In this document: positions 1 to 55,621 of the stretch, piece after piece
How positions within the stretch are numbered: the stretch's first letter is position 1
How the letters are laid out: every line of letters starts with the position of its first letter
Source: Cyanophora paradoxa CCMP329
Lineage: Eukaryota > Plantae > Glaucophyta
Length of the DNA stretch: 64,000 nt
Direction of reading: 5' to 3'
NCBI GenBank assembly: GCA_004431415.1
Contig: QPMI01000162.1
Span: 1-64,000, forward strand
Made by a program: the position numbers and the translations under genes
The notes under the pieces: model-generated
The model's database searches: none
What the model saw: the letters and a program-made list of their open reading frames with translations, nothing else
What the model was told of the DNA's origin: nothing

Positions 1-533
1 CGCGGGCCGCGCGCGGGCCCGGCCGCGCGGGCGGCGGGCGGAGGCGATTGCAATTGCGACCCTAGATGGTTCGCCCTCGGCTCCGTGACAGTGAGTCGCG
101 ACTCAGTGACTCTACGTATACCGGTGCGGCCGCCGGGCAGTATACGTATACGTACCGTCTCTCAGAGTGACAGAGTCTACGCCGGCTAGCTCGACGTGCG
201 AGTCGGTGCGACGTCGACTCTCTCGGACGCCGAGTACATGTACAGTGTACACTATAGGCTATAGCTATGTCCTATAGCTCTAGCTATAGGGCTTTCCATA
301 GCTAGAAAAAGGAGTATGTAGTTCGCTTATCAATCGGGGCACCCCCTTCCTTTCCCTTTCCCCGACCCTAGAATCTGACTTTCTCTCTATTCTTGTGTAA
401 TCAGAAAACCTCTTTACACGTTAAACAATCTGTAATAGAAGAACAAAAACGTAATAAAAGTACAAGGTTTTCAATTATCCGAAGAAGACTAGACTAGTGA
501 AATTAAAGGGAAAGGGAAAGATAGAACGAAAGC

Positions 534-1126
534 CTACATCATATCCTCGAATTGTTGCCGATCGTCCCGCTTGGTTCCTGGCGGGAGGAGTGTGATTTGA
601 GCACGAAATGGACTGGAGGGCGGGTCCCGAACCGCGGGCGCATCCTCGTCGGCCTCGTCGACGTCGGCCTCGTCGGCCTTGCGCTTGCGGCTGCTGGAGG
701 GCGAGGGATCGGGCGGCGTTGCTCCATCTTCTGCACGAGGATTAAGGTCGGGGCGCGAGGCACGGGTCGGCACTGCGCACCTTTCGGAGAGTCCACGGGC
801 GTGGCGACCGGTACGGGGGCTTGGCGGGCGCCCCTGCCTCGGCCGCGTGCGGCTCCGCGCGCGCGCCCCCGGATACGAGGTGCTTTCTTCGCGGGAGCGA
901 AGCTTTGGCGACCTCTAGGCTTCCGCGGGGCCGTTGCCGGGCGCCCCGCGGTCGCCGCCGATGCTGCGGGCGCCGATGCGGTCGCCGCCGATGCTGCGGG
1001 CGACGCGGGCGCCGACGCGGTCGCCGCCGATGCTGCGGGCGACGCGGGTGCCGACGCAGGCGCCGCGGCCTCCGCCGCGTCCTCGGAAGGCCTCCCTGCG
1101 CGCTTGCCCTGCGAAATGCTTCGCAC
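534..1126 (-). CDS. Ala/Pro-rich then basic low-complexity ORF, possibly the frameshifted C-terminal tail of the AAA+ gene
   Basis: ASAPASPAASAAT repeats followed by KKAPRIRGRARG. Lies just downstream of the AAA exons on the same strand and is followed by AT-rich UTR-like sequence. Confidence 0.35.
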
Positions 1127-1157
1127 TGCGCGATGGACCGGCCGTCCGGCGGCTCCT

Positions 1158-2440
1158 TTAACTCCCTCGGCGGACGGCCTGTTTCACGCTCTCGTAGTCG
1201 ATGTCCCTTTTCCTGTCGTCCTGATCAAGAAAGAACGGGGCACGCGATGGGCCCCGGCGACGGACCTGATGCTTCTGAGTTTTTCCCCGAAAATCTCTCG
1301 AAGACCTGGTACGTGAAGCCCCCGACATTTCGTCCGACGCGAGCTCGTCGAGGTTCACGTCGGCGAAGCACTCCTCGCGGAAGAGATGCTTGTTCGTCGG
1401 GGAGAGTTCCCGCCCCTGCCGCTTCTCGTTCTCCTTAAGGAGCGCCTTCTCGTGCTCGAACTTCATGATGGACTTGATGATCTCGCGGCGGAATTCGGCG
1501 TTGGGTGCGGGAAGGAAGATGCTGCGGAACGGGATTAAACGCGAAGGAATACGTGCAGGACGGCGTACTGCTTGCGGAAGCGACGAAAGAACTTGGCGTC
1601 CATGTCGAGCGGATAGTTGGTCGCGGCGATTACAATCGGACCGCGGCCGGGGTCGCCTGTGCGAACTCGCCGGTGCTCGACCTCGTTGTAGAGTTTGTCC
1701 ATCGCCGTCGCAAACTAACACCCTGTGAGTCGCGGGAGGCGTGCACGAGCACTCGAGCGTACCGTGTTCATGACCTGTTTCTGCAGTTCGTCCAACGACG
1801 CCTTGGAAGCTGGGACGGTCGCATCCACCTCGCTGGACCAAACGTTACCGAGAGCGCCATATTATGCATTGCAGGGAGCGAAAATATACGCACTCGCACA
1901 TTAAGATGACGTCCTGCACGTCGTAGGCGATGTCGAAGAACGCCTCGACGATCTTTGCGGCTTGCCCGTACTGCTGCAAGATCAGGGATGGAACGGGTGC
2001 GCGGGCGAACGGGCGAGCACATATTCGCTGATCTGCGACGGCTTGTACTCGAGGAAGCTGTAGCCGATGCGGCGAGCGAGCTCGCGCGCGAACTGTGACT
2101 TGCCTGTGCCCTGCGCAACGCGAATCAGAGAGCGCGAAGCGGGCCCCCGCGCGGAAGCACGGACCGGGCGGCCGAACAAGAGGACTCCAGTGGGCGAGAG
2201 ACGCTGAAGGGACGGCCACCCGTCCGCCGCCTCGTCTTCCGGGTCGGGTTCCAACCGTTTTGGACCGAGGGCTCCCTCGAGGTCTTCCATGTCCCCTCCG
2301 GAACGACTGGCGACGCAGAGTCGGATAAGGTTCATCGAGGCGCGGGCGACACGCTCGCACATAGGGTGCATGCTCTTGAGGCGCTCGTTGTCGATGAACG
2401 CGTTGCGGATGCCTTCGTGGACGCCGCCCTGAGCAGACGT
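1158..2440 (-). CDS. Classical-clade AAA+ ATPase (CDC48/spastin-like core), multi-exon; N-terminus unresolved
   Basis: After removing short introns (e.g. 2111-2164): Walker A GVLLFGRPGTGKS, Walker B VILMCDEVD, KQVMNTFATAMD, second region of homology IVIAATNYPLDMDAKFFRRF, then IFLPAPNAEFRREII and DVNLDELA. Confidence 0.85.
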
Positions 2441-2992
2441 CCGCCTTGCTCAACGCCGTTTCGAAGTCCACTTTTCTGTCGCGATCGGGAACGTGAGAAC
2501 GGTCGCCCCCGCCGCGAGGTGCGGTTAAGAGCACCGATCCATGTCGGGGGCGGGTCTCGGGCCATCGCGACCGCCATCGGGGTGCAGGTAGAGGGGTTGT
2601 TCGGATGGTAGATCGGATCTCGGGGTCGAGGAGGCATGACAGAAGGGCGTCGTCGCACGCAACCTTTTTCCGCCACGTGTGCTTCCAGCGACCTTCGGAC
2701 GGCTTGATGAGCTCATCTCCGCGCTCGCTTCTGCCGCCTACTCTCCTCGCTCTTCGACGCTCGATCGCCCTTGGGCGGGGCGGCGGGGCGCGGCCGCCGC
2801 GCCGGAGCCGTCGGCGCCGCGCCCGCCCCCGACGCGCGTGCTCCTCCACATCGAGACCGCTGCCAAGAGAGAAGTTGGGCGCGTTGAGCTTCTTCACGTG
2901 CGTTCGCGTCGTTTTCGGGCCATCATGAGCAGACAGGAAACGCCCGGAGCGCCGCGCCGATCTTGCGAATCCGCAGAAGCTGCGAGCGAGGG

Positions 2993-4306
2993 TCAGGGTG
3001 GCGCCCGCGCGACGAGCGGGATCGGGCGGACCACATCGACCAAATTCTTCTTCCCTTTTCGGTGTCGATGTGATCGACCGTCTTGTCGCGAAAGTCTTGG
3101 ACCGTCCCGACGTTTCGAGGGAGAGCATCTTCGCCCAGTCAGCTTGCCGTGTGGATCTTCATCGAAATCCGCGATCCTCTCCCCGACGAGGCCTCGAATC
3201 CGTTCGCTCAGGGTCTTGCTGCTGATCATGAACGACTCGACCGCTCGCCCGCCTTCTCCGCGCATCCTCCTCCATTATCCGCCGACCCTCGAAGTCGTAG
3301 AAAGGGCGACGTACTGCGACGAAAGAGCTCGTCGGCGGGCAAAGTGGGAATGGGATTGGGGGGCGTTGTACCTGGCAACCATCATGAAGGTCGCGGTGTT
3401 CTCCAGCTCGCCTGCCGTGAGGATGGAAGCTGCCGCCAACATGAACCGATCCAGCTCCCTGTACTTGCTCGGATCGTTCTTGATTTGCGAGATGAGATCC
3501 ACAGGTGCGGAGGAGGCGAGCCCGCGCATGGCGCGGACAGCTCGCCCGACGCGACGGGTTGACGCTGACAAAGGCGCTGTTGGAGGAGCTTTCGATCGCG
3601 TCCGCCACCACATTGCCCACTGGCGCGGCACCGTGCTCGACGGCAAGGTGCGGCCGGCGAATGCTGAGGTGGTCGAGGACGACCCGCCGAAAGCTGCCAA
3701 GCCAGCCATCCGCGAGATCTCGACGATGGCCTCCGCCTGCGCTCGACCGTCGCGTCGGCGTGACGCGTACGGCCCTTGCGCGGGCGGTCTGGATCGTCGT
3801 CCGAATCGTCGCCAGCTTCTTCGTCCTCCTCGTCCTCCTCGTTCTCCTCGTTTTCTTCTCCTCGGTCGCCGTCGCCGGCTTGCGTCGCCGGCCTTGCCGT
3901 CGCGCGTTCGCCTTCTTGGGACTCCTTTCTTCTGCTGGCGCTGCCCTTTCTTCGGCTTCTTTTCGCTCGCCTTGGCCGAGTCGAACACGCGCTTGAACAG
4001 GTCCACCGCTGGTTTGCTGCCGCTGCAGGCCTCCGGAAGCCCCGCAATGTCGTGGTACTTTGCACAGACGGAGCCTGTGTTCCCGAGATTGACGGCCTCG
4101 GGACTCCTCCGCATTCGCTGCGCGTCGAGCGGTTTACAACGAGACACTCTACACACTCGGTACGATGCGCACCACCCCGCAACCGCGTTCCTGTAGCTGC
4201 GGAAGCGCTCGTCCGAGATGAAGCACGGAAGACACAATCGGCGTCGTGCGCCGCAGTCGGGCTTGCAGAACGAGACCGGAGCAACACACCTGCTTACATA
4301 CGACAC
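2993..4306 (-). CDS. Hypothetical protein with Cys-rich N-terminus, Lys-rich and acidic tracts; disrupted by frameshifts or unresolved introns, possibly the N-terminal part of the AAA gene
   Basis: ORF 3275-4306 has CKPDC, CLPC and CASYRVC motifs and KKPKK. An acidic EENEENEEDEEDEE tract lies in another frame. Confidence 0.35.
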
Positions 4307-5280
4307 AATGACCTCCGCTGCGGATCGGCGTTAGCGGAGCAGGGCGCGCTCGTCAAAGCGCGCACCCGTCGGCTGGGGCGGCGGGGCGGCGTTCGGCGGC
4401 TCTGCGGGCCTCCGCTCCCGCCCGGCTGCATCCGCTACGCTTAACAGACTGCTCTGCGCGTGGAGCCGAGCTTTCACGGTACCCAGCCGCAACCGTGTAT
4501 CCCATCTGCTAAGACGCGTTCCAGCCGGTCTGCCGCGTTTTTTCGACCCTTTCGGGCATAGTTGACCCCCGGGCCCCTTTCCGACCGTAGCCCCGCATGT
4601 GGACGACAGCGCCGGCGAATTCGTGTGCGTTCGTTTCGTATGCAGCATGGCGCGCATGTCGGCGCGCCCTTGCGTGCCCTCGCGAGCGCGAACACGAGAG
4701 GTCGAGCGAACATCGTGCTCCACACCCCCCAGCCGTGCGTTACTGATACTCCTTGGCTCTCGAAAGATGACTCGCCATCCAACGTTAACACGTACAAAAG
4801 CTCTCTCGAACGCGCAAGAGTTCCTCGAAACCGGAGCAGTTAGTTGGCCATGGGGCCTCCTTTGCCCGCCCGCGTCCCCGCGGCCGTCACGGAGCCGCCC
4901 TGAATCCTTCTAAAGGCTCGACGCAGTCGTCCGCCGCCACTCTTGACGCGCTCGCGCAGATGCCGATCGGGCCCGCGGCGAAGACGATGCAATTGCAAGC
5001 CCTGCGACGCGGTTCGGCTCGTCGCTCCTCGCGCGACCTGCGCCGGGTCGGAGCGAGAGCTTATTATGCTTAGAAACAGGCCGCCGGGGCAGGTGGAGCT
5101 CTCAACGCGCACCTTGGGCGTCGTTCGTCCGCACCCCGGCCCGACGCCCGTTTCGTCTACCAGAGTCATCCCGCCGCGCAGATGGAGGTTATAATTGAGC
5201 TCGCGGAGTACGATGAAAACCGCCCATCGCCGCCCTCCGCCACTCGTCCCCTCACCCCCCCCCCCCCCCCCCCCCCCCGG

Positions 5281-5392
5281 CGGCCGTCACGGAGCGGCGG
5301 CGCGTTCGTCTAGGGCGGGGCGGCCGCGGCGCCGCCCGTACCCCCCTCGGCCGTCACGGAGCGGCGGCGATTCCGTCTAGGGCGCGGCCGGT
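5281..5392. repeat. 66-67-bp B-type tandem repeat, 2 copies
   Basis: Unit CGGCCGTCACGGAGCGGCGGCG..GTCTAGGGCG at 5281 and 5348. Confidence 0.9.
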
Positions 5393-5397
5393 CCGAC

Positions 5398-6633
5398 ATC
5401 TCTTTCCTTTGCACCCCCGGCGGCGCGAGGTGAGCCCCTCGCCCGCCGCCGGCGCCCCCCTAGAGGGAACTGACTCGGCTCCGTGACGGGCGGCGGGGGT
5501 AGGCCCGTGTCTGTTTCCTTCGTTCCCCCGGCGGCGCGGTGAGCTCTTCGCCCCCCGCCGGCGCCGCGCTAGAGGGAACTGACTCGGCTCCGTGACGGGC
5601 GGCGGGGGTAGGCCCTCATCTCTTTCCTTCGTACCCCCGGCGGCGCGGTGAGCCCCTCGCCCGACGCCGGCGCCCCCCTAGAGGGAACTGACTCGGCTCC
5701 GTGACGGGCGGCGGGGGTAGGCCCGCATCTCTTTCCTTCGTACCCCCGGCGGCGCGGTAAGCCCCTCGCCCGACGCCGGCGCCGCCCTAGAGGGAACTGA
5801 CTCGGCTCCGTGACGGGCGGCGGGGGTAGGCCCGCATCGCTTTCCTTCGTACCCCCGGCGGCGCGGTGAGCCCCTCGCCCGACGCCGGCGCCCCTCTAGA
5901 GGAAACTGAGTCGGCTCCGTGACGGGCGGCGGGGGTAGGCCCGCATCTCTTTCCTTCGTACCCCCGGCGGCGCGGTAAGCCCCTCGCCCGACGCCGGCGC
6001 CGCGCTAGAGGGAACTGACTCGGCTCCGTGACGGGCGGCGGGGGTAGGCCCGTGTCTCTCTCCTTCGTACCCCCGGCGGCGCGGTAAGCCCCTCGCCCGA
6101 CGCCGGCGCCGCGCTAGAGGGAACTGACTCGGCTCCGTGACGGGCGGCGGGGGTAGGCCCGTGTCTCTCTCCTTCGTACCCCCGGCGGCGCGGTAAGCCC
6201 CTCGCCCGACGCCGGCGCCGCGCTAGAGGGAACTGACTCGGCTCCGTGACGGGCGGCGGGGGTAGGCCCGTGTCTCTCTCCTTCGTACCCCGGCGGCGCG
6301 GTAAGCTCCTCGCCCGACGCCGGCGCCGCGCTAGAGGGAACTGACTCGGCTCCGTGACGGGCGGCGGGGGTAGGCCCGTGTCTCTCTCCTTCGTACCCCC
6401 GGCGGCGCGGTAAGCCCCTCGCCCGACGCCGGCGCCGCGCTAGAGGGAACTGACTCGGCTCCGTGACGGGCGGCGGGGGTAGGCCCGTGTCTCTCTCCTT
6501 CGTACCCCGGCGGCGCGGTAAGCTCCTCGCCCGACGCCGGCGCCGCGCTAGAGGGAACTGACTCGGCTCCGTGACGGCGGGGGTAGGCCCGTGTCTCTCT
6601 CCTTCGTACCCCCGGCGGCGCGGTAAGCTCCTC
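5398..6633. repeat. 109-bp A-type tandem array, about 11 copies
   Basis: TAGAGG(G/A)AACTGA.TCGGCTCCGTGAC anchors at 5461, 5570, 5679, 5788, 5897, 6006, 6115, 6224, 6332, 6441 and 6549. Confidence 0.97.
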
Positions 6634-6644
6634 GTGTCACCCAT

Positions 6645-6790
6645 ATCCCCTAAGTTGTCACTAAGATATATATAAAAAGCCGAATAGATAACGAGTACAA
6701 CTCTCATCCCCGCCCGCGCAGATGGAGGAGCCCACCGACTTCGCGGGGTACGAAGGAAAGAAGACAGAGCCCACCGCCGCCCTCCGCCGC
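6645..6790. promoter_or_regulatory. AT-rich spacer core between the A and B arrays, copy 1 (TATA-like or unwinding-element-like)
   Basis: AGTTGTCACTAAGATATATATAAAAAGCCGAATAGATAACGAGTACAACT, with imperfect inverted arms AGTTGT(C)ACT / AGTACAACT. A near-identical copy lies at ~9330-9475. Confidence 0.5.
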
Positions 6791-7060
6791 CCGTACCCCC
6801 CTCGGCCGTCACGGAGCGGCGGCGATTCCGTCTAGGGCGGGGCGGCCGCGGCGCCGCCCGTACCCCCCTCGGCCGTCACGGAGCGGCGGCGATTCCGTCT
6901 AGGGCGGGGCGGCCGCGGCGCCGCCCGTACCCCCTCGGCCGTCACGGAGCGGCGGCGATTCCGTCTAGGGCGGGGCGGACGCGGCGCCGCCCGTACCCCC
7001 TCGGCCGTCACGGAGCGGCGGCGATTCGGTGTAGGGCGCGGCCGGTCTCCTTCCTCGGCC
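6790..7060. repeat. 66-67-bp B-type tandem array, 4 copies
   Basis: Units start at 6803, 6870, 6936 and 7002. Confidence 0.95.
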
Positions 7061-7355
7061 GTGCACCGCCTCTACACCCTTCACGTTCAGCCTTTCCCGC
7101 AGTCACGTGCCCTCGTTCGCTTCCACATGCCCTCTACGACGCCTCTTCCGCCCCGTACCCCTCGATACCCCGGCCCGCCCGCCCAACTCCCGCCGTCGCT
7201 CGCGGATCGCGAGCCGACTGCGCGCGCTGTTCTCGAATATACGTGATTTGCGGATTCAAACGATACGCTGGACGCGTGGGGCGGGGAAGGCGCTTTCGCT
7301 CGAATTCAACTGACGGCGTGCTTAAAGGCGGAGCAGACGGTCCCTGGACGCACAT

Positions 7356-7852
7356 TTGCCATCGACCTCGACGATCATGGAGGCCTCTACCGTCGTTCAA
7401 AACGCCGCCCGTCGCATCTCCAGCGCCCTCGTCGCCGGTCGACCGATCGCCCTCGCGCTCCGGACTCCGACCCTGCTCAAGCGCGTCGCCGAGGTCGTCG
7501 AGCCCGCCGTCGCCAGCCTCCTCGTGCGCGCACACGTCGTCGTACTGCCGGAGCCGCGCGGCCACTGGCTCGTCCGCATCACCCCGCCCGGAGCTCAGGA
7601 GCCCGCCTCTTGGGGATCAGCGACCGAACTCCCCGCCTCCGAGAGCGCCGTCCTCGCCCTGCTCGCGGGATTGAGACCGTCGTCGCCCGCTTCGCGCGGG
7701 CCGAGGCGGACGAGCTCTCCGCAAAGATCCTCGCGGATCCGCGCATCGCGCACCTGCGGCGCCGCGTGGGCGTCACGCGCCAGGAGGTACCCGGAGCACC
7801 GAATTCGATCTTCTGTGTTTACGCGGTCGGCCGCGGCGCGAGCCGTAGTTGA
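7356..7852 (+). CDS. Small orphan protein between the two repeat modules, one apparent frameshift near 7670
   Basis: Protein-like MEASTVVQNAARRISSALVAGRPIALAL...LALLAG continues in another frame as IETVVARFARAEADELSAKILADPRIAHL. Confidence 0.4.
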
Positions 7853-8574
7853 CGCGTTCGTAGGCTCCGTACAGCTAGAAAACGCAGCGCTATAGCTGTA
7901 GCCACGCCGTGATGCAAATTTTAAGCTCGTCGACGTCTGTGATTCGTAAATGCGTACCCCAAATCCGCTGCTCATGGGAGCGAGCCGGGGCGAGCTTTGA
8001 GGCGAGCTGCGAGGCGCGTCGCTGTCTAGCGCTCGTTGCGGGCCTTGCGCTCGCACAGCGAGCGTCCAGCGGGCCAAATCGGCATGAGACCGGAACGTAT
8101 CGTTGCAGCGCCCCCAGCGCGACGCAGATGCGGCGGTTGGCGTGAGAGAGCCGCGGATCGGAGACCTCGGCGGCTCGGATCGCCTCGGCTTCGTGCCGGC
8201 GGATGTGGCGCGCGCCCGAGGTACTTGTAACCTTCGCCTCCGGCCGCAACAGCTTCCGGACGATAGATGGCGGAGGAATGGTGCGCCGTGCCATCGCGCC
8301 GCGCAGCGAGGTCGAGCGCCTTGATAGCTTACATCGCGCAGGCCTGGGTCGTTCGCGGCCGGCGCGGACGAGCTCGAGGCCCGGCGGCCGCGGCCTCGAT
8401 CGAGCGCCCGGAGGCTACGTGCGCGTTCTACCGACACGGCCCGAGCTCCGTGATAGGCGGCGTGGACCAACGCCGGACGGGCGCGCGGCCAACCTAAGCG
8501 GATCCGGAGTCGCGTTCGCGAGCTGTCGCCTTCGTTACGATAGGTGCGCCCGTTCCTCAGCGCCGGTGTCGCGT

Positions 8575-9318
8575 TAGAGGGAACCGACGCGGCTCCGTGA
8601 CGGGCGGCGGGGGTAGGTGCACCCCTCAGGGCCTCCTTCGTTCGTACCCCGCGTAGGCTATGAGCGCCGCGGCCGACGCCGGCGCCGCCCTAGAGGGAAC
8701 TGACGCGGCTCCGTGACGGGCGGCGGGGGTAGGCCCGCATCGCTTTCCTTCGTACCCCCGGCGGCGCGGTAAGCCCTTCGCCCGCCGCCGGCGCCGCCCT
8801 AGAGGGAACCGACTCGGCTCCGTGATGGGCGGCGGGGTAGGCCCGCATCGCTTTCCTTCGTACCCCCGGCGGCGCGGTAAGCCCTTCGCCCGCCGCCAGC
8901 GCCGCCCTAGAGGGAACTGACTCGGCTCCGTGACGGGCGGCGGGGTAGGCCCGCACCTCTTTCCTTCGTACCCCCCGCGGCGCGGTACGCCCCTCGCCCG
9001 ACGCCGGCGCCGCCCTAGAGGGAACTGACTCGGCTCCGTGACGGGCGGCGGGGGTAGGCCCGCATCGCTTTCCTTCGTACCCCCGGCGGCGCGGTAAGCT
9101 CCTCGCCCGACGCCGGCGCCGCCCTAGAGGGAACTGACTCGGATCCGTGACGGGCGGCGGGGGTAGGCCCGCATCTCTTTCCTTCGTTCCCCCCGCGGCG
9201 CGGTGAGCTCTTCACCCGCCGCCGGCGCCGCCCTAGAGGGAACTGGCTCGGCTCCGTGACGGCGGGGGTAGGCCCGTGTCTCTTTCCTTCGTACCCCCGG
9301 CGGCGCGGTAAGCTCCTC
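8575..9318. repeat. 109-bp A-type tandem array, 7 copies (first degenerate)
   Basis: Anchors at about 8575, 8691, 8800, 8908, 9016, 9125 and 9234. Confidence 0.95.
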
Positions 9319-9329
9319 GTGCTACCCAA

Positions 9330-9475
9330 ACCCCTGAAGTTGTCACTAAGATAAATATTAAAAGCCGAAAAGATAACGAGTACAACTCTCATCCCCGCCC
9401 GCGCAGATGGAGGAGCCCACCGACTTCACGGGGTACGAAGGAAAGAGGACGGAGCCCACCGCCGCCCTCCGCCGC
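9330..9475. promoter_or_regulatory. AT-rich spacer core, copy 2
   Basis: AGTTGTCACTAAGATAAATATTAAAAGCCGAAAAGATAACGAGTACAACTCTCATCCCCGCCCGCGCAGATGGAGG, a direct repeat of 6645-6790. Confidence 0.5.
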
Positions 9476-9479
9476 CCGT

Positions 9480-9735
9480 ACCCCCCCTCGGCCGTCACGG
9501 AGCGGCGGCGATTCCGTCTAGGGCGGGGCGGCCGCGGCGCCGCGCGTACCCCCCTCGGCCGTCACGGAGCGGCGGCGCCTCCGTCTAGGGCGGGGCGGCC
9601 GCGGCGCCGCGCGTACCCCCCTCGGCCGTCACGGAGCGGCGGCGCCTCCGTCTAGGGCGGGGCGGCCGCGGCGCCGCGCGTACCCCCCTCGGCCGTCACG
9701 GAGCGGCGGCGATTCCGTCTAGGGTGCGGCCGGTC
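9480..9735. repeat. 66-67-bp B-type tandem array, 4 copies
   Basis: Units start at 9488, 9556, 9623 and 9690. Confidence 0.95.
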
Positions 9736-9968
9736 TTCTCCCTCCACCGTGTACCCCCTCTTCGGCCATCGCGGTACTTCCTTCCCGCCATCGCAACGCA
9801 TATACCAAGCAATAACTCGCGTACACGCACAGGAGCGGGCGCTTTCCGCCGTCACAGAGCGGATGGGAATCCTCCAAGGCCCGGGTCGGCTCTGTCGAGC
9901 GCGTGAGCGAGCCATCTCCCGCCCCTAGGACAACTGCCCGTCGCTCCGTGACAATACCGATCCTTCGC

Positions 9969-12900
9969 TCAGGTACGCATCTTTGGCGGGCGACCGCGCC
10001 GCCGGGCAGGCTGGGCGCCGCGCCCAGCGCCGCCGCCGCGCGACGACGACGGAGACGAGGACGGTGTGGCAGGCGCCGGGAGGCCCAGCAGCCCCAGAAT
10101 GCGCTCGGGGCCGGTCCGGATCTCGACCGTGCCGTTCCGTCCCTCATACTCGACGGGATAAAGTGACGAAGGAAAGCTCCACTCGCGCGGTCCGCCCTCC
10201 TGGCTCGGCGCCCACGCGCCGCCGAAGCGCTTCAGCACCACGAAGCGCGACTCGTACTCGCCGCTCGGCAGGTCGATCGTCTGGACGAGGCGCGCGAACC
10301 ACACGCCGGGGAGCGGGCTCGCCGCGTGCGTCGCCAGCGCCGCCACCACCTGCCCCGCCGGGTACGGCGAGGCCGACCGCCAGTGCAGGTGGTAGAGGGG
10401 CGGCGCGGGGCCGGCGGCGGCGACGCCGACGGGGATGGGCTCCTGGGAGGCGGCGCCTCCGCGCCCGCGCGCGCGGCCGAGGCCGCGCCGGCCGCGCCCG
10501 CCGCGGAGGAGGCCGCGGAGCAGTAGTGCTCGTGGGCCCGCGCCCCGGCCGAGGTCTTAAACTCCTTGCGGTGCGTCAGGGCGGCGGCGCGCGGGGGCGG
10601 CGCGGGGCGGGGCGGGGCGGGCGGCTCACCCGATCGCAGGGCGCGCAGTACCTCTGCTCGGCGATGGCGAGCTCGCGCTCGAGGGTGTAGTCGGCGTCCC
10701 AGGCGCGCGGCCTCTCCGCCCCGTCCGCCGCCGCTTGGCCTCTTCGCTCCCGTTCGACGTGCCGCTCCCGCCCTCGCCGTCGTCCTCCGAGTACGAGCTG
10801 GAGCTCTCCGCGCCGCGCCCCGCGCGGGGACGCGCCGGGGCGGACGGCGGCGCGGGCAACGGCGCCGGCTCGTCGTCGGCGTCCTCCTCGGAGTCCCCGC
10901 CGTCGTCCCGCTCCGCCTCGGTCCCGCCGCCCGAGCTCCCGCCCGCCGCCGAGGGCGCGGGGATCCGGATGGCGGCGGCGGCGGCGGCGGCAGCGCCGGT
11001 GCCGGCGGGAGTTCGAGGCGGGGCGGCGACTCGGCGGAGGCGGCGCTCTCGCGGGCCCGGAGCCGCGCCTCGTCGTGCTTGACGGCGAGCTCCTCGAGGT
11101 ACGCCACCGCCGCCGCCGCCGTGCGCGCCCGCGCCGAGTAGTCGTAATTTTGCGTCGCCGTCAGCACCGAGTGGCCCAGGAGCTTGGCTGCGGGCGCGCG
11201 GGCGGGTGAGAGAGGCGGGGGGGGGGGGGGGGCGGGGGCGCTTCGGCGTACCCGTCCCGTCGACGACGGCGGCCGCGGTGTCGCCGGAGATGCGGTTCGC
11301 CGCGGCCTCGTCGCGCACGTGCGTCGTGATGATGGCCCGCATCGCCTGCGCCGTCACCGGTACCCCCGTCCACTTTTCCGTCACGCGCTTGACAAAGACG
11401 CTCCAGGCCGAGTCGGAGAGGGGCGCTCCCGAGGCGCTCGTGAAGAGCCAGCCCTCGTCCGCGCCCCCCGGCAGCGGCGGGAGGAGGAGGCGCCGGTACC
11501 GCTCGACGTACGAGGTGAGCGGCCGCTGCACAAACTCCGGGATCGGGTAGCTGATCGCCCCCGCAGTTTTCGCGGTCTTCGACGAGAGGACGGCCTCGCC
11601 CTGCCCCGCGTCCGCCCGCATCTGGGTGAGCGTGATTGTCCACGCGCCGCCGTCCCGCCGCAGCGTGTGGCCGATCCTGCGGGGGGCGCAGAGGGGCGGG
11701 ACGGGGCCCTCGCTCGGCGCGGGGCGACGGCGCGGCGCGGGGGGTACGGCACCTGAGGCGGCGGACGATGCCGACGCGCGAGGGCGTGGAGACGAGGAGG
11801 GAGAGGAGGACGCCCTCGCGGAGGGCGAGCGCCCTCTCGTACTCGAGCGGCGCCCGCTCCGCCGCCTCCAGCGCGTCCAGCCGCGCCGAGAGGAGCGCCT
11901 CGAACGGCACCCAGTTCGGTCCGCGCTGACGCCATTTCACGCCTTCGCGCTTCTCCTTTCTCAGCTGCGCGATCAGGTTCCGCAGCGGGCGCCCGTGGGG
12001 GCCCTCGGAGCCGGCGGCGGCGCCGGCCGTCCGCGCGTGGACAAAGGAGTGGGCCTGGAGGGCCGCCTGCGTGTACCCCGCCAAGGTGCCCGCCCGGACC
12101 CTGCGCTCGTCGCGGAGAAACGCGAGGAACCGCATCCACAGGTCGATAAAGTCGACGCGGGCGCCGGAGAAGAGGTCGAGCGTGAGAGCGCCGTCGATCT
12201 TCTCGCGGAGGGCGCAGTACCCCAGGAACCGGAGGAGCGTCGTCCGCTCGTTCGCCAGCGTCGTGGAGCGCTCGACGGCGGCGCCGGGGCGGTCGGGGTT
12301 GAGGAGGCGGGTGCGAAACTCTTCGTACGCGGCGAGCTGCGCCTTGAGCTCGCGCGACTGATCCTCCTCGCGCAGGCCGTACGGGGCGCCCCGCTCTGCC
12401 GGCTCGTCGCCCGCGGGGCCTTCGTCCTCCTCCTCGCCGTGCTCGTCGGCCGGGGGTACGGGCGGCGGGGGCGGCGAGGCCCCCGCCTCGGCGGACCCCT
12501 CGGGATCGGCGCCGCCCGAGTCCGACTCGGACTCGTCCGGCTCGGCGGGGGCGGGCGCCGGCGGGGCGCGGGCGCGCTTGGGGGGTACAGGGTCCCCGGC
12601 GGCGCCGAGCACCACGCGCTCGGGGTCCACGAGGGCGTCCACGTCAAAGAGCGTCGCCCCGCCGTGGTCCATGCTCTCCAGCATCCGCCGGTACGCCAGC
12701 CGCTTCTCGGCGATGAATTTCCCGTTGTCCTTTGCGATCTGATCCGCCATAGGGCCCCCGGGGCGGAAGAAGTGGATGGAGCCCTGCTCGAGCTCGTCCG
12801 ACCACGGAAAGCCCGTCGTCGCCTCGACGATCCCCACGTCCGCGATCCAGAGGACCCCTGCGCGGTGCGCGCGGCATGAGTTTGATCCCGTTACCCCCGC

Positions 12901-14376
12901 GGAATCGAACCGGGCCCCGCACAGATGCCGCACTGGAACCCGTCCCCCTGGAGGCGCCCACCGGCCGTCTCCTCGCGGTACGCGTGCGCGGGAAAGGCCG
13001 CCTGGGCGGCGTAGAGCAACCTGGCGTCGCAGGGCGCGCCGAGGCTGTCCCAGTACCGCGTCGTCCTGCGGGGGCGGCGCGATCGCGAGTGGCGCAGAGG
13101 ACGCGGGCTCGGGCGCGGGGGCGCGGGGCGCGGCGCCGTCGGACCTCGCGGCGCCGGAGAGCACGAGCAGCGTCCAGTGCCCGCCGCTGTTCCACGTCCG
13201 CTCCGCCCCGCGCCGCGCGATCGACGTCGAGACCGGGCAGAAGAGGGTACCCCCCCGCGCCACGAACCCCAGGGCCTTGCGCTGACGCCGCTCCTCGCCC
13301 GCCGCAGCGTAGCGCCGAAGGAGGCTCGTCAGAATCTCCACCGGCATGGGGTACAGGGCCCGCACGCGCGCGTTCTTGGCGCGGTGGAGCAAGAGGCTCA
13401 TCACGTTGGCGACGTGCGTGTCGGCGAGCCACTCGCGCGCGCCAAAGATACCGACCCTGGGTCCCGCAGGCGCCGGCGCGGGGGCCGCGGCGGCGACGGT
13501 GGCGGGGTCGGCGCCCTCTAGCACGAGCCGCTGGCGGCGAAAGTCGAGGTGGAGGTTCGGATCCCGGCCGGGGAGATCCTTCAGGAGGCTTTCGACGGCG
13601 ACGGCGCTGAGGAACGCCCAGCGGCGCGCCGAGCTCCGCGTTCGCTCCCCGTCGACCTCGGCGCCGATGCCGGCGTAGTAGGTGAGCGTCCTCGTGAGCA
13701 TGCCGAAGCGCTCGCGCCCGACGCTGAGCGTCGTAACGTTCCAGCGGTGCGGGCCGCCCGACGCGAGTTCCGGGAGGCGGCGCTCGATCTCCCGGCGGAG
13801 CGAGTTCGTGGCGCGCGAGGAGCCGTAGAGGAGCTCGGAGAGCGACGCCATGGGGACCCAGAGCTTCAGGTCCGGAGCCTCGATCCGGGTCGCCGGCAGG
13901 GCGTAGAGCCGCTCGCCGCCGACGCGCACGACGTACAGGTCGTAGCGGGAGAGGGCGCACAGGCGGCGGCGCTCGTTGGCGGCATAGAACGCGGTGGCAG
14001 CGGCGCGCTTCCGGGCCTCGTCGCTGTCCCGCCACGCCTGGTCGACGACCTCGAGCACGTACCTCATCGACAAGAGGCGCGGCGGGTCCTCGGGCGTGTA
14101 CTCGCCGCGCCGGACGGCCCCGAGGGTCTCCAGGAGGAGGATCGCGTGCTCGCTCGGCACGGGCCGCGCTGGGACGCCATAGCGCGCGGTGAGCACGTCC
14201 TGCACCTCGTCCTCGCCCTCGCCCTCGGCCAACGGCGGCTCGCCCAGGACGCGCGCGAGCTCGGCAGAGCAGACGGAGGGCCCGGCGTCGGACTTTAGCA
14301 CCACGAGCTGCGTCCGCCCCCACGGCCCGTCGAACTCGATCAGCTCGTACGCGTCGTGGACCGTCTGGAAGTACAT
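9969..14376 (-). CDS. Multidomain protein: possible Bro-N-like pair, Ulp1/C48-like cysteine protease, tyrosine recombinase, C2HC zinc finger, AT-hook (spliced)
   Basis: Introns 13066-13144, 12858-12922, 11677-11752 and 11188-11251 give a continuous frame. Protease motifs: EWLADTHV, GGHWTLLVL, RYWDSLG, QGDGFQCGIW. YR motifs: TPSRVGIVRRLR, SKTAKTAG, WLF, TAQAMRAI, AKLLGHSVLTATQNYD. The 3' part (CAPCDREFKTSAGARAHEHYC, RRRGRPPK) needs another intron and apparent frameshifts. Confidence 0.88.
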
Positions 14377-14609
14377 GGTCGCCGGCCGGGCCGTGCGGGC
14401 GGGCGACCCGGAGTGGGAGGGGCGAGGTGTTGGGATTCGACGTGCGGGGTGGGATCTATTTATGGGTTACCTCGCACCTTTAATCCTCGCGCTCGCGTCG
14501 CCGATGTTATCTTTAGTCCCTGCGCACAGGCCGCGCGCGGGCGGAAGGCCGACGGGAGCGGACGAGGCCGAATCGTATCCCCACGAGCCGAGGCCGCCAT
14601 CCCGCGACG

Positions 14610-14830
14610 TTGATCACGTACGCCCGCCCGGCTTCGTCCCCACCTACACCTTACCCCTCTGAAATTCGGCCAGGTTTGCCACCTAGGGGCGCCCGCCCTC
14701 GTCGCCCGCCTGCGTCGCGGCGGCGGCCGCCGCGCCCCGCCCCGCATTGACCACGTACGCCGGCCCGGCTTCGTCACCCCCACCCCCACCCCCGCCTTTG
14801 CTAATATTCGGCCAGGTCTTCCACCAAGGC
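14610..14830. repeat. Two ~80-bp direct repeats (period ~137) in the divergent intergenic region between the YR and Skp1-like genes
   Basis: TTGA(T/C)CACGTACGCC.GCCCGGCTTCGTC...ATTCGGCCAGGT occurs at ~14610 and ~14747. Confidence 0.7.
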
Positions 14831-15068
14831 GCTCGGCAACGCGCGGCGTCGGCGACTCATCACCGCCGCCCGCGGCGATGAGATCGGTGCGCCCCCGCCG
14901 GCTCGGGCTTCGGGGACGGCGCCGGGCGCCCTGCGACGCCGCGAGGCTCAGATCCGAACGCGGCGGCGCGGGAGGCGGAGGGCCGTCTGGAGCGGACGTG
15001 GCCGAACTCTCCCCAGAAATGCCTCCGATCTCGCTCCTCCTCGAGCTCGTCTTCGTCGGATGACAGCT

Positions 15069-15508
15069 ATGACACCGATGATCCTTCTCTGCTCCGACGG
15101 CGTCCATATCCCGTGCCCCGCGGCGCTCGCCGCCGACGCCCGCATCCTCTCCCTCGCCTCGAGCTGCTCCGACGCCGACGTGGCCCCGTCCCGCTCCCCT
15201 TCCGCTCCTCGCTCGTGTCGGCGGCCGGCGTCGCCCTCTCGCACCCCTCGCCCGCGGCGGCCGCCCTCGCCCCCGGGGCCTACCCCGACCCGCGGGCCGC
15301 CGCCTCGGCTCTCGTCTTCCTCGCCGAGCTCGCGATCCTCGCCGATTACCTCGACGCCCGGCGGCTCGAGCTGGCGTGCGCGGCGCTCGCCAGCAGCGCG
15401 TCCGAGCTCGCCATCAAGTCCGCCTGGGCCAAGGCGAGCGTCCGTCCGCCCCCGCCCCGCGGAAGCGCCCCTTTCAGGCTATCGGATCTTCTTAGGGACG
15501 TGTATTGA
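15069..15508 (+). CDS. Skp1/BTB(POZ)-like small protein with a frameshift near 15185
   Basis: N-terminal MILLCSDGVHIPC, VPLPFRS, and C-terminal LAELAILADYLDARRLELAC resemble the Skp1 motifs IxLxSSDG, IPLP and LFELILAANYLDI. Confidence 0.65.
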
Positions 15509-16429
15509 ACGGCCTCTCCGAGTACTGCGTGCACCGGCGTCTGCGGGGCCAGGGGTACAGATTTTGGGGACCCTTGGACCCCTCTCCGGGGACCTAGGGT
15601 TCGTTTTGAAACGAGGTCCGGGATCCGCACTAGCAATTTATTCGCGCTCTCCGGGCCCTCCCGAGCCCCTGCGACGCGTTTGTGCGGGGCCGACTTTTTG
15701 TTTAACGGGGTATTCGACGGTCCCTCAATCTGTATTGGATAATTTCGTGCTCCACTAATTATCAGCGTCCAGTGTTTTCCTATTACACGGTAGTGATGGC
15801 CCACTGATGGGCCAGTGATCATGATGGCCCAGTGATGGGCCACTGATGGTTCCACTGATTGGGTGATGATAGCTATAGATTTCCGGATCAGTCGATTTTC
15901 CGAGGAATTTCAAACTTCGAGGATTCTTATATATATGCCTATACTGGCCCTATAGTTGCCAACTTGCCATCTAGATTCAGAGTGATTCTAGAATCTAGAG
16001 CTGCGACGGCATAGGAGCTTTACTACTACGGAGCTTTGCATCTCGCACGCGTGTCGCGCGGGCTGTCCGCGGCCGACGGACCGGCGACGGATCAAGCCCC
16101 GGACTCCCGGCTCAAGTCCGACGGCCGCTGATCATGAGTGCGCGGGGGTCAGGGCCGGTCAGCCCGGTCAGGTCGCAAAATTGAAGTTTCTGCGGTGCCA
16201 GGCTGCCAGCTGCGCAGGCCTAGGCCGCCGCGGCTGGGTTATTGCAAGGGGGGAAAAGAAGACCGAAGGTCTTCCCCCCCTTGCTTCCCGTTCCCTCGCT
16301 TCAGCCAAAAGTTTTCTATGAGGCCGTTTTCGAGGGCCAGCTTGCAACGAAATTGTCGGTTATTCGCGATCCGATTGGCTCGGTGAACCGGTCAGCTCTC
16401 GACTTTCGAGCGTCGAATCGGAGGGGAAA

Positions 16430-16491
16430 AAGTGGTTTTCGAGGGGAAAACTAACTTCTCAAGTGGTTTTCGAGGGGAAAACTAACTTCTC
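16430..16491. repeat. 31-bp perfect tandem duplication
   Basis: AAGTGGTTTTCGAGGGGAAAACTAACTTCTC occurs twice. Confidence 0.85.
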
Positions 16492-17245
16492 TCTAACTCC
16501 GGTCTTCGAATTCCTTGCGCCGTTCTGCATGGAACCAGTTCTCCCTAGCTCTCTCCTCTACATTTCGGCTTCCTCGCAGTGCGTCGCGTACGCCTTGCTC
16601 TTCGTTGCGCGGTTCTGCATGGAACCACTTCTCTCTACGTACCTGTCAACGTCTCCTCTAGATTAGCTTGCAACGAAAAATGCGCCCCTGCCTAGCTGGG
16701 CCGCTGATCGTAGCCGAGGACAGGCCTTCGAGACCGTGCTCTTTCGCTGCGCTCGGGACGCCGCCGAATTCGAGCCTATATTGCAGAACCGCGTGCGGAG
16801 CTGCCCGCAGCCGAGCACGCCGGACGGGCCTGGCGCTCTTGTTGCGTTTGGCACCTGGCAAGCAGACCAGTTCGCGCGCTGCGCACGGCGCGCCGGTCGA
16901 CGCCGCTTGCAATTGTCTGCTCATTCAGGTTGAGGCTGCTGTCAGCGTCGGCGCTCCGACGTTAACGTTCGGCGTCCCGCGTTGCCGGGACGCCGAACGT
17001 TGCAACCTGCCGCGCGCGCTGGGCCGGGGTCGATCTACATCTGCCCCGTGCATGTTCGTGCCACTACTACTCTTTCATTAGATCCAGATTCCCCCCTTGC
17101 ACCCCCGGCGCGCCAAAACGCGGCCGGGCCACTAGTATATCGATCTACCGTGTAACACTTAATTAATGCGCCGGTAATTAATGCGTTTTTGGACCCGGAC
17201 CCCCAGTTTGGATAATAATGCGGTCCCGAATTAATGCGTTTTATA

Positions 17246-20200
17246 TTTGTTTTTGGTGAATTACCGGCCACAGTCTCTAGACACCAGCACTGCGGGGGCT
17301 GCCCAGGGGGCATAGAGACAAAATAGCAAAATAACTAAGACAAGAGCACGAAGAAAGATAAGACAAAGAGCCAAAATCGACAATAAAAAAGGAAAGACAC
17401 AGAGCTCGAGACAGATCGATTGCGAGAAGAGACGATAAATCGAGCAGATCTAGGGACAGAGGATAACTGACACGAAGAAGAGCCAGAGCTAGAGGATAAC
17501 TGACACGAAGAAGAGCCAGAGCTAGAGATACCATCAATATCAGAAGGAATTACATCACTAAGAAGCGGGGACAAAATTGAGAAAGATAAATAACAGGAAG
17601 AAGACAAGTAAGAGGAACAACAAGACGACATGGAGGCGGAGGCGAAGCAGGACGATGCGAAAGGGCAGAGCTACGGCACGAGGTCGAGGAGGACACAGGA
17701 GGCGGAGCAGGCGGATCAAGAGCAGGCAAAAGAACAGTCAAAGGAATCACTAAAGCCGGCCGGGGTCGAGGCGGGCAATCGAACTGCAAACGACGGCGAA
17801 CAACAGGTCGAGCACGAGGACTATAGCTAGTATTGAAACTAACTCTAGCATCAACACTACGATCAGAATCCGAACCAGACCGAACTAAACTAGAAGACGA
17901 AGAAGTACGCCGGCGCCGGCGGGATACGATCGCGACCAGCGAAGCAGAAGACAAGGACAAAGGCGGTAGTCCGGTATCAAGAACAAAGGCCGGAGGGTCC
18001 GGCCCGGCAAACCGCCGGGGGAAGTAGAAGGAGCCGCAGGCTCGGCAAGCCGGCGACGGGTACGACCACGAGTCCGGAAGGAGATCGGGGAAGCCGGTCC
18101 CGGAGCTGAGGGCCCAGGAGCAGAGCCAGGAGAAGGTAAGCCCGGCGAGAAATCTGACCCGGAGCCGGAACCCAGCGAACGACGACGACGAAGAGGCCCC
18201 GAGGAGCCACGACGGGGGAGCTACCGAGCAAAGTACTGACAGCCGGCGCCGAACACGGCGGCGGAGGTACCCCGCAGACAGTGGCAGGCGGAGAGTCCAG
18301 GGTCGATCGAGAGATCCGCCGACGGGAATGCGGCGGGGGCCGACGAGACGGAAGAGGCGAGGAGGGGCCGAGGAAGGGTCGGAGGCAGGGGAAGGGCCAC
18401 GAGCAGGTGACGGGGATCGCTGCCGGCGCCGAAGAGAGGGCAGCAAAGCAGGAGAAAGGTCGGGTGGCGCCGGAGCAGATGACACGGAGGTCATGGCCAT
18501 GGGCGGTGCAGAGAGAGACGAGCTCGAGGGCGCAAGGGCCCGACGAGGGCGCCGGCGGCGAATCTCACGAGCGCCAGGAAGCGGGATAGGACCCGCAGAT
18601 GGGACCCGAGGCGCCGAAGGGGGAGCAGGGAGCCGGAATGACGGGGAGATCGAAAAGAGGACAGTCTCGCCAACACTCGGAAGCGGGGCAGAGGCCGAGG
18701 ACCCGGAGCTCGAGGGGGGGAGGGAGGGCGGAGGAGGAGAGAGGAGGCGGCTATTCGAAGGGTATGGAGAATCGAGAGCGGAGGCGAGGGAGGCCGAAGT
18801 GATGGCGAGCTCTGGAGGCGAGGGGGCCTGCAAGCGGATCCGGGAAAGTGGATGCAGACGCAAAGAGACCGGGGACGTAGAGGCGGGAGGGGCATGCAAA
18901 AAGATAGTGCCGCCCAGCGTCACAGTTGCAGAAGCGGGGCAAGAAGGATGGGCTGAAGAGGGGGCTGAACCAGGAGGACGTCAGAAAGAGGGCCTCGCAG
19001 GGGCGGAAGTGGAGGAGCAAGGGGAAGAGGTAAGAAGGGGTATGGAGCTGCAAGATGACCAGGGACCTGCCGGGAACAGGCAAGTGAAGAGGCCCGTGAC
19101 AGCAAGTTGTAAGGAGGGAGGAGGCAGAGGCGGGGCCAGAGGGCCAAGGAGCACAGGGATCGGGACCGCAGGGAATGGGGGAAAGGAGCGTCGAGAGGGG
19201 CAGCGAGAGCAGGAATAGGAATGGGCCCAAGGGTCACTACAGGGGCCAGAGCAGGAGGGGACGGCGCAGGAGGCGGGCGACCACCAGGGATCCCCAACGG
19301 GACATTCCCACGAACGGCAAACTCCGCAGGATTCCGGAGGACAGAATCGATGTCACGCGAAGAGACGAGGTTGTCAGCACCGCCCGAAGAAGGAGCGCCG
19401 GACGAGTCAGAATCAGAGCTTGAACTAGAACGATGAGAACCGGTACCAGACTCTGAATCATGTGCGTCATCATCCGAGGCAGCCTGATCATCAGCGTCAG
19501 CAGCAGCCAAGCGAGCGCGCCGCTCCTCCAACAAGGCCGAAGCCTGCGAAAGGGTGAACTCGAGGTACGACATATTTCTGTCCCAGGCGGCAACAAGCGC
19601 GGCGCGGTTGTAAGAAGGCGCATCAATGTCAGCCTCCTCAAGATCGCACCGAGCGCGAGCAACCTGTTGGATGGAAAATACGCCAGCAAGGATCGCTCCA
19701 AGTGAGCGAAGGCAGAAGGCGGGGTTAACTTTACTGCGCAAAATGGGCCCAGATAAATCCGGAACCGAGAGGATGTGGAAGAGAGAGAGCTCAGGCACTG
19801 CGACCTCTTCACGCTCATCCGGTGGAAGAGTAGAAGCCCAGAAATTCAGGCGCTCACGAATGAAATCCCAGAACGAACGAGAAAGCGGGCACTCAGAGAA
19901 AACGTGCGCGTGAGAGCGAGCAGATCCGTCATTACAAACCCGACAGAAACGACGGCGGGGCGACTGTTGCTCGCCCAAACGATACAATTTGAAATGCAAA
20001 CGGTAAAGAGCATCGATCCAAAGCATCGGGAAACACTGAAGGACGACAAGATTAGGAAGACGGGACGGAGACAAGGCGCCGGGAAACCCCCACTTAGCAT
20101 CGGGCATCTGAGCGTGGCTAGACACATCGCGAAGCCGCTGGACCTCAAGGCAGTAGAAGCGACGAACAGAGGAGAGGCGGAGAGGGAGCATACGAGCGAA

Positions 20201-21846
20201 AGTGAACGCAAGATTATCAAGAGAAAGAAAGGCCGAAGGGCCTGCGCCAAGAACAAAAAGGCCAGGCAGGGTCCCGCGACGAAGAGAGAGGAAGACAGCG
20301 CTGAAGCAAACATGCAGCGGGAGCAAACGGGACAGAATTGAATTGGAGCTCGAGGATAGGCCCACAGGGTGGGAAGCCGCAGGGCGGCAAGGAACGCGCG
20401 GTATGTAGTCCAGCACCCGTGGAATTATCTGGTTATCGCGAACAGGGAAGGCAACAAAAGTACCACTTGGGCCTCGAAGGAGAGCAAACGAGGCGTCCGG
20501 TCCGGACCACCAGAGATGCTGAGGCGGCGATGCAGGGGCCTCGAGAACCTGGCGCCAAGTAGCCGGGAGCGCAGAACACAGACTAGGGAAAAAGGAGTGG
20601 AGGGCGGAGGAGGCAGCTGCTGGAGCCCGGAACCCCGGGCAGCACAATCCCAGATATCGCAGACCCGCAGCAAGCCGGACCGTGCACAGCGACTCCAGTC
20701 GACCTCGTCGCCGGGAGTACTGAACAGAGGATTGAAGAAAAGAGGTTGGGATAACACTTCGGGAGAGTTACGAGGTTGACACACGCCCTGGCGCTGAGCC
20801 CACTCGGAGAGAGTCCGCTTCCAAATAGGAGGCAAGTCAAGTCTGTCAAGTGGGAGGCGGAGCGAGACAAGGGCGGGGCCATAGGAAAAAGGTGCCAGCT
20901 GAGCGTCCAGTTTGCTCAAGAGGTACTCCTTCCAAGGAGCTGAACAAGAGGGGTCAGCGAGCAAGGCCACCCACTTCATTTTCAGCGATAACGAAAAAGC
21001 TCGAATATCCGGGCAGTTGAGACCACCTTGACGCCACGGCAGAGGAGAAATATACTTCGAAAGCTGCCCGCTCACGCCAGCAAAAGCGCGAAGCTTCTCT
21101 TGCCATGTCGAATACTGAGCATCAGGGGGTCAAGCAAATATAGAGCATAATGTAGGGACCAATAAATACAGCCCAGGCAAGGAGAACGCCGGAACGCATC
21201 GGCATGCGATAAGTCTTCGCTTGCTGGACACGGATATCAAGAGCAGCGGTCTTTTTCCGCCAGAACCGAGACAGATCGGGCTCTAGTGGAAAGCCCAGGT
21301 ATTTTCGAATTTTTTCAGCGGGAGGGAGATCCGTCACCTGAAGACGCCGCCAGGGGCAGTCCTCGACGCTAGGCCAGGCATGTGCGGGGATATCGCGGAG
21401 TGGAAGAAGGCTAGATTTCTCGAGATTAATAAGAGCTCCAGAGAGCCGGCAGTATTTATCAAAGCACTCTTTCCAGAAAGGCAATTCGGTAAAAGACGAG
21501 ATTAAAGGAACCGTGTCGTCTGCAAACTGGAGCACCTTGCAAAGAGAGCTAGAGGACAAGCGGACACCTCGTATACGAGCATCAGCATTAATCAAAAGGG
21601 CTAAAAGGTGTGTGCACAAATTATATAGATAGGGCGAAAGGGGGCCACCCTGACGTACACCGCATCGAATGGGGAAAGGGGCGGAGGTCCAGCCGTTAAT
21701 GTGAACAGAACCCTGCAGATCAGAGTAGAGCAGGCGGACCCACTTGATAAATTGGGACCCGAAACCGAACTGTTCGAGCGACCAGAAAAGGAAGCTCCAG
21801 TTAACGCGGTCATAGGCTTTTGAAAAATCAAGAAATCCGAAGCACA
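17246..21846 (-). mobile_element. 5'-truncated L1/Tx1-like non-LTR retrotransposon
   Basis: 10-bp TSD GCGTTTTATA (17236-17245 and 21847-21856), an A-rich tail at the left end, RT and zinc-finger coding sequence, and a long 3' region shared with 48719-50055. Confidence 0.93.
18920..21845 (-). pseudogene. LINE ORF2 remnant (RT C-terminal half plus zf-RVT-like region), frameshifted near 21120 and 20645
   Basis: FLDFSKAYDRVNWSFL, GVRQGGPLSPYLY, LQFADDT, KYLGFP, LPWRQGGLNCPDI, CRVC...HVFSEC. Confidence 0.92.
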
Positions 21847-21959
21847 GCGTTTTATAACTTTTGGGCTTGTATGGGGGGGGGGGGTATTTTACTGGAAATT
21901 AGAAAATTAGGCCTTAGGCTGCGGGCGGGCCTGCAGTACAAGCTAGCGCTGCCACGTAA

Positions 21960-50055: not shown

Positions 50056-50063
50056 TATTTTTA

Positions 50064-55599: not shown

Positions 55600-55621
55600 T
55601 TGAATAGCGGTACGGCGGGCT

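Follow-up and report, generated by a model that had tools for sequence, protein, structure and literature searches.

A recently duplicated block in the Cyanophora paradoxa genome: a likely Crypton-like tyrosine-recombinase transposon with cargo

The left part of a 64,000-nt stretch of the Cyanophora paradoxa CCMP329 genome (contig QPMI01000162.1, positions 1–64,000 of the forward strand; hereafter the window) holds a 15-kb block with a tyrosine recombinase (YR) gene fused to a Ulp1-type protease, an ATPase gene, repeat arrays and a BTB-like open reading frame (ORF). The block is a real, young, multi-copy YR element, and with moderate confidence we read it as a recently duplicated copy of a Crypton-like DNA transposon with cargo. 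In line with the broad definition of a Crypton, it encodes a eukaryotic YR with its catalytic residues, shows no match to a reverse transcriptase (RT) or DDE transposase, and is dispersed in multiple copies. The original prediction of a new class of element is overstated, since Crypton denotes any eukaryotic YR DNA transposon, a polyphyletic assemblage in which a C48 peptidase is already known as an optional gene (PMC13465315, PMC3212892); what appears to be undescribed is the YR lineage. Beyond fungi, oomycetes, animals and Chlamydomonas, such transposons have seen little sampling, and a separate lineage whose young copies are transcribed, in an alga that is haploid and can be cultured, offers a tractable test of whether non-fungal eukaryotic YR elements move multi-gene cargo, as well as of the function of the Ulp1-type proteases that transposons have repeatedly captured.

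By composition and ORF survey, the window is GC-rich, intron-rich eukaryotic DNA, and the gene model of the YR gene (P0001) and its paralogues bear the accession label Cyanophora paradoxa. The comparison of copies is based on gene models and read contigs; contig depth in the read graphs does not equal copy number, and none of the runs containing the stretch, including those termed RNA-type here, is recorded as RNA. Because C. paradoxa is reported to be probably haploid (PMC6704402), sequence variants among copies are not expected to be alleles.

The exons of the YR gene (Table 1) match P0001 at 98–100%, and its introns are canonical (13144–13066, 12922–12858, 11752–11677, 11251–11188 and further ones in the 3' part). 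Both catalytic sets could be located, Arg819/Lys860/Arg940/His974/Tyr983 for the YR and His400/Asp417/Gln450/Cys456 for the protease, and a six-copy profile matches clan-CE proteases in the PDB (E 3e-6), all of which bears out the predicted Ulp1–YR fusion with recognizable catalytic motifs. The predicted protease fold is most similar to NopD, a NEDD8 protease and SENPs, all above E 0.001. Matches of the YR to integrase models are weak (Pfam E 0.02; PHROG E 4e-4; XerC/XerD E 0.005–0.008). The N-terminal ∼130 residues, modelled with AF2 in the paralogue P0006 (pLDDT about 80), weakly resemble the Bro-N and Dachshund/Ski DNA-binding domains (Foldseek matches all at E > 1e-3), while the C-terminal region shows a weak zf-C2H2_jaz match (E 0.04) and 55–59% identity to P0005.

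The YR family comprises 10 gene models on nine contigs of C. paradoxa, with identities ranging from near-identical to 29–36%. A first search with the first 874 YR codons retrieved six of 7,996 scored candidates, all from C. paradoxa. Four of these models are nearly identical and lie on three contigs, and the other two stand at 43–48%. A second search, using HMMER with the catalytic exon, gave 13 matches at E ≤ 0.001, namely six family models (four of them new), a Fabomonas fragment, a metagenomic YR, four integrase-like proteins and a spurious Pedobacter surface protein (P0015), which is excluded from all counts. Across the 10 models the YR residues are well kept (first Arg in 10, Lys in nine, second Arg in eight, His-Tyr in eight), as are those of the protease (His in seven, Asp in nine, Gln-Cys in nine), and the missing residues appear, on our reading of the alignments, to fall in models that are truncated or mis-spliced.

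An ATPase gene lies close to the young YR copies. Their models g2900, g513 and g23672/g23682 adjoin the ATPase models g2896, g505/g517 and g23679, at distances of three to eight gene numbers, so the proposal of a multi-copy recombinase element with linked YR and ATPase holds on all three young-copy contigs. Among 2,973 candidates four close ATPase relatives were found, all on these contigs, and a second ATPase type, 86% identical, also lies beside a YR. We infer that the ATPase travels with the YR, and it looks like cargo of this subfamily rather than a core gene of the YR lineage. A tentative alternative, possible but held with less confidence, is that mobility is confined to the ∼6.4-kb YR/BTB segment (∼9350–15739) and small non-autonomous repeats, the ATPase having been copied along by segmental duplication or by ectopic recombination between arrays. 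Copies do occur in pairs on two contigs, the repeat module is itself tandemly duplicated, the left end is only a candidate, and an ATPase was not seen with the diverged YR paralogues or the metagenomic relatives; yet two ATPase types that differ by 14% are both linked to a YR, copies of the repeat motif bracket the ATPase gene, and 4/4 close ATPase relatives found stand on YR contigs.

The spliced and transcribed ATPase gene encodes about 1,000 residues, with a Cys-rich N-terminus, an acidic linker, a helical region and a single classical AAA domain (PF00004, 81–83 bits) whose Walker A/B motifs, pore loop and arginine finger are intact by eye. The AAA+ assignment of the original prediction therefore stands, whereas the 'Cdc48-like' label does not: one AAA domain is present where Cdc48/p97 has an N domain and two AAA rings, and the score against the CDC48 model is 63 bits, with a cut-off of 803. 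The best PDB matches are AFG2/VAT/Cdc48, and the best NCBIfam match is CdvC, followed by CDC48. The orphan ORFs formerly placed at 2600–4330 are absorbed into this gene. Eight of its minus-strand splice joints occur in RNA-type runs only and in none of the DNA runs (among the 15 of 21 joints listed), and its frameshifts in the window coincide with single-base assembly gaps that the DNA runs do not share (among the 12 of 64 rows listed); the sister ATPase models are whole. At its start (4080–4330, minus strand) there is a Cys-rich, RING-like pattern by eye, with no Pfam match.

Both proposed ends lie near branches in the read graph (15739 and ∼310). The right end at 15739 is a sharp candidate, at which depths of 337 and 224 in two DNA runs fall to 131 and 82. 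On the left, an RNA-type contig ends at 312, position 65 is the start of a DNA unitig in each of two runs, and the element may extend past the window start. The CryptonS terminal word TATGG is absent at the right branch, itself only a candidate end, and the branches at 15739 and 310–312 share no convincing terminal word of the kind seen in Cryptons, where a 4–6-bp terminal direct repeat matches the target. A likeness between the left end and the core of the module was discarded, as three other sites in the window score higher. As a separate observation, an identical short terminal word occurs at 15783–15793, 17146–17156 and 23227–23237, the last two as an inverted pair around a 6.1-kb stretch with a long interspersed nuclear element (LINE); the first copy ends 54 bases to the right of the branch point and has no partner end in the window. 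The word presumably marks the end of a transposon family with terminal inverted repeats (TIRs).

Several observations weigh against the block being a single transposon with cargo. The gene models and read contigs revealed neither an empty site nor a circle junction, nor any terminal direct repeat. The depths on either side of position 310 are similar (170 versus 202; 100 versus 129), making an end further to the left possible, and the repeat motif recurs at 62–89, left of the candidate boundary. The YR is internal, and the arrays lie mid-block instead of at the ends. The search of 2,973 candidates, a weak one, gave four matches and no ATPase relative on the six contigs with diverged YRs, and six-frame reading of three metagenomic loci with related YRs showed neither a protease nor an ATPase ORF. 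The family member P0012 runs from the YR into a WD40 gene, and sense-strand splicing of the YR is absent among the 15 of 148 joints listed. P0012 is a chimeric model in which a translated tandem repeat with a period of 93 aa, ∼1,000 residues long, precedes the family YR and the WD40 gene; this suggests that the element inserted within a host gene or next to one.

In scans of the ORFs in 500–15800 against Pfam and PHROG (which divergent capsids can escape) no RT, DDE transposase, capsid, packaging ATPase or polymerase was matched, as the original prediction had noted for RT, DDE, capsid and pPolB; for RT and DDE this absence is valid for the element only if its left end lies inside the window. 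The RT and integrase matches of the window lie outside the element, at 21.1–21.9 kb and 54.6–59.6 kb, and the YR is thus not accompanied by RT/RNase H as in DIRS, Ngaro and VIPER. No Rfam family was found in 1–17500, one supplementary gene-order table from the literature gave no matches, and the exact sequences of five window ORFs are absent from the protein collection. These scans also bear on an improbable alternative in which the block is a domesticated fragment of a Polinton-like virus (PLV) or giant virus, as large DNA viruses are known to carry genes of each of these kinds (YR, Bro-N, Ulp1, AAA and BTB). The fold matches do include giant-virus Ulp1-like proteases and Bro proteins (all at E ≥ 1e-3), the C. 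paradoxa genome contains PLVs and giant-virus insertions (PMC12220804, PMC12344493), and PLVs and phaeoviruses use YRs (PMC4642659, PMC13236599). Set against this are the lack of capsid, packaging ATPase and polymerase matches, the intron-rich genes and host-like GC content of the element, and the failure of protein and motif scans, which are weak in that they need near-exact peptides, to find a relative in viral contigs; no relative was found in prokaryote genomes or phages either.

The repeats form a module that is duplicated within the block (5865–7073 versus 8543–9761, 90% identity). A bipartite motif of 28 bp is common to its 109-bp and 66/67-bp arrays but oppositely oriented in the two, so that it faces an AT-rich core from both sides. 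This motif occurs 30 times in 62–9722 against 0.03 expected and is absent from the other 54 kb. The repeat modules of the original prediction were thus confirmed. Solo copies bracket the ATPase gene, and none lies near the right end. The putative orphan ORFs between the modules (7043–8540) have no family match, and their exact products are not in the protein collection. By analogy with the 2-micron plasmid, the arrays and AT-rich core might instead be the origin/partition locus of an integrating nuclear plasmid whose YR amplifies or resolves circles. The iterated motif facing an AT-rich core would fit, as would the tandem arrays that adjoin the YR in two more members of the family (a 98-bp repeat in which the metagenomic locus L001 starts, and in P0012 the translated repeat that precedes the YR), but a replication protein is missing, contig depths exceed those of the flanks only a few-fold, and unrelated ∼110-bp arrays lie elsewhere in the window; we consider this reading highly improbable.

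The ORF at the right of the block, first called Skp1-like, is in turn a weak lead to a BTB/POZ protein. Its two halves have no Pfam, PDB or fold match, one half being predicted as two helices, and in the ESM Atlas it falls with BTB/POZ clusters at a score of 0.90 and 128–137 of 256 features, a level that shuffled proteins reach in 4–10 of 100 cases. The proteostasis theme once suggested for the accessory genes is accordingly weaker than stated: the clan-CE protease remains, next to a single-AAA ATPase closest to CdvC and then CDC48, and the BTB lead. A 2,425-nt contig present in two RNA-type runs, which come from two studies, covers 12375–15491 with YR intron 1 retained and five stretches skipped. 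All five of the latter have plus-strand GT-AG solutions, versus none of the four tested on the minus strand, and in the last gap the four introns add up to 246 bases, as the length of the contig demands. A spliced antisense transcript therefore passes over the 5' half of the YR gene and terminates within the BTB-like ORF. A long antisense ORF was not established, as no frame is free of exonic stops throughout and more than one splice solution exists for two of the gaps. Transcripts often overlap in C. paradoxa (PMC6704402), and regulation of the YR by this one is therefore only a suggestion.

On our preferred reading of a transposon with cargo, the recombinase fusion would excise the 15-kb block in circular form and integrate it at another site, with the ATPase and BTB-like genes carried as cargo. 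The YR would recombine short homologies at the ends, as Cryptons and Starships do; active Cryptons insert by short homology (PMC9977147), and Starships move cargo by means of a YR (PMC10104507). The Bro-N-like domain may bind the 28-bp motif, in which case the inward-facing arrays could act as accessory binding sites or as a control region. The protease might strip SUMO, NEDD8 or ubiquitin from the recombinase or from nearby chromatin, the ATPase might extract bound proteins and so ease recombination or silencing, and the antisense transcript might dampen YR expression. A still bolder version, an autonomous circle-forming cargo element that represents a new YR superfamily across algae and other protists and the first non-fungal analogue of Starships, the Cyanophora branch bearing origin/partition arrays and a dedicated anti-silencing kit of modifier-stripping protease, segregase and cullin-type adaptor, we consider doubtful.

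Table 1. Features of the block, in window coordinates.
Feature	Position	Strand	Remarks
28-bp motif, solo, beyond 3' end of ATPase gene	62..89	+	0 mismatches
Candidate left boundary	305..312		Read-graph branch 310–312, palindrome-rich host-like DNA stops; unitigs 65–339, 312–824 (X1, X2)
Spliced ATPase gene, ~1,000 aa	539..4431	-	Models P0007–P0010, PF00004, splice joints
28-bp motif, solo, upstream of ATPase gene	4886..4913	-	
Partial module	5165..5390	-	Right part of spacer and two 67-bp units, no AT-rich core
109-bp array 1	5399..6634	+	11.4 units, motif facing core
AT-rich core 1 and spacer	6635..6784		Bracketed by 40-nt imperfect inverted repeat
66-bp array 1	6785..7042	-	3.9 units, motif facing core
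Putative orphan ORF	7377..7895	+	Possibly frameshifted
Putative orphan ORF	7890..8294	-	
109-bp array 2	8543..9319	+	5.9 units (about 7 if degenerate ones are counted)
AT-rich core 2 and spacer	9320..9469		94% like core 1
67-bp array 2	9470..9724	-	3.8 units
Two degenerate motifs, back to back	9851..9952		Just past YR stop codon
YR fusion gene	9969..14373	-	P0001 mapping, intron sequences, paralogue alignments
Zinc-finger-like motif, conserved C-terminal domain, AT-hook-like tail	9972..10722	-	Labels by eye
YR core-binding and catalytic domains	11030..12410	-	
Clan-CE (Ulp1/SENP/NEDD8-protease-like) cysteine protease domain	12850..13440	-	Catalytic residues intact
N-terminal region	13500..14373	-	First ~130 aa: predicted Bro-N / Dachshund-Ski-like DNA-binding fold
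Spliced antisense transcript over YR 5' half into BTB-like ORF	12375..15491	+	2,425-nt contig in two RNA-type runs (X15, X16)
BTB/POZ-like ORF ('Skp1-like')	15060..15508	+	Split in window by one-base assembly gap near 15183
Candidate right boundary	15739..15740		Shared unitig 12359–15739 ends, lower-depth unitig 15710–16268 begins (X1, X2)

Beyond the block, very high-copy repeats occupy 16214–17200, with a summed contig depth above 10,000 in parts. The LINE (17243–23108, RT at 21128–21898) is frameshifted, and a 91%-identical, 1.2-kb inverted copy of its 3' part lies at 48719–50058. The pol region of a long terminal repeat (LTR) retrotransposon, with RT, RNase H and integrase, spans 54658–59551, and an ORF with leucine-rich repeats at 43771–44529 is probably a host gene. 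Unrelated tandem arrays of 112-bp units (×7.5, 51994–52832) and 68-bp units (×2.5, 50063–50235) show that such sizes are not unique to the element.

With respect to described YR families, no match was found to DUF3504, DUF3435, NDC10_II or GCR1_C (six proteins at E ≤ 1 and four more at E ≤ 0.1), which leaves the element without the GCR1_C/NDC10_II match of CryptonF and without the DUF3504 match of CryptonA/Glomhopper. Judged by these missing Pfam families, which set it apart from CryptonA, CryptonF and Starships, the YR lineage looks undescribed, and we found no description of the family in the literature, Repbase and subscription journals lying outside our scope. Its clear relatives are unnamed metagenomic YRs (P0021, P0024, P0027 and loci L001–L003). 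A profile of the metagenomic YRs aligns full-length with the Cyanophora YR (374 columns, probability 99.9%, E 2e-32), and the three loci, which encode an N-terminal domain, an acidic linker and a YR, score 128–226 bits against a profile built without them. Homology of the N-terminal domain to these relatives was rejected as not significant (probability 0.1%). One locus (L003, an 8-kb contig) has two convergent family YR genes, at 603–2162 (plus strand) and 4194–8215 (minus strand), the second with a Cys-rich tail. A YR tree of 20 rows has long branches and includes no PLV, Crypton or DIRS reference, and its group labels are our own.

Compared with known systems (see also PMC12721341, PMC10288648, PMC12130899), the element shares with the metagenomic YRs and the Fabomonas fragment (P0018) homology over the whole core-binding and catalytic region, as well as an N-terminal domain and acidic linker, but no protease insert or ATPase was seen in these relatives. 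YR-encoding PLVs and phaeoviruses (PMC4642659, PMC12220804, PMC13236599) likewise have a phage-integrase-like YR, and share with the element a common pool of genes for the Bro-N and protease folds; the element differs in showing no capsid, packaging ATPase, polymerase or TIRs, the presence of capsid and packaging genes being what defines PLVs (PMC4642659), and in its intron-rich genes and classical AAA ATPase. Elements of the Ginger, Mutator and Helitron groups repeatedly contain Ulp1/OTU domains, and a 2010 study put forward a connection between these domains and the ubiquitin pathway (PMC2836005). Such elements, Ginger1 among them, resemble ours in fusing a ubiquitin-like protease to the mobility enzyme, while relying on DDE or HUH chemistry instead of a YR. 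Starships (PMC10104507) are YR elements with cargo, and the present element, whose movement is only predicted, likewise appears to carry spliced cargo genes; in contrast to them, the element shows no DUF3435 match, has an internal rather than leading YR, resides in an alga rather than a fungus and is far smaller. The combination of a YR with a C48 protease has been published for oomycete Cryptons (PMC3212892), and the C48-bearing Cryptons (CryptonF-2_PS and some CryptonS; PMC3212892) have in common with the element a YR as sole mobility enzyme, no RT, no TIRs seen, a Ulp1-family protease and introns, whereas the element, which has no GCR1_C/NDC10_II match, is distinguished by a Bro-N-like N-terminus, a zinc-finger-like tail, a length of 15 kb, an ATPase and internal arrays.

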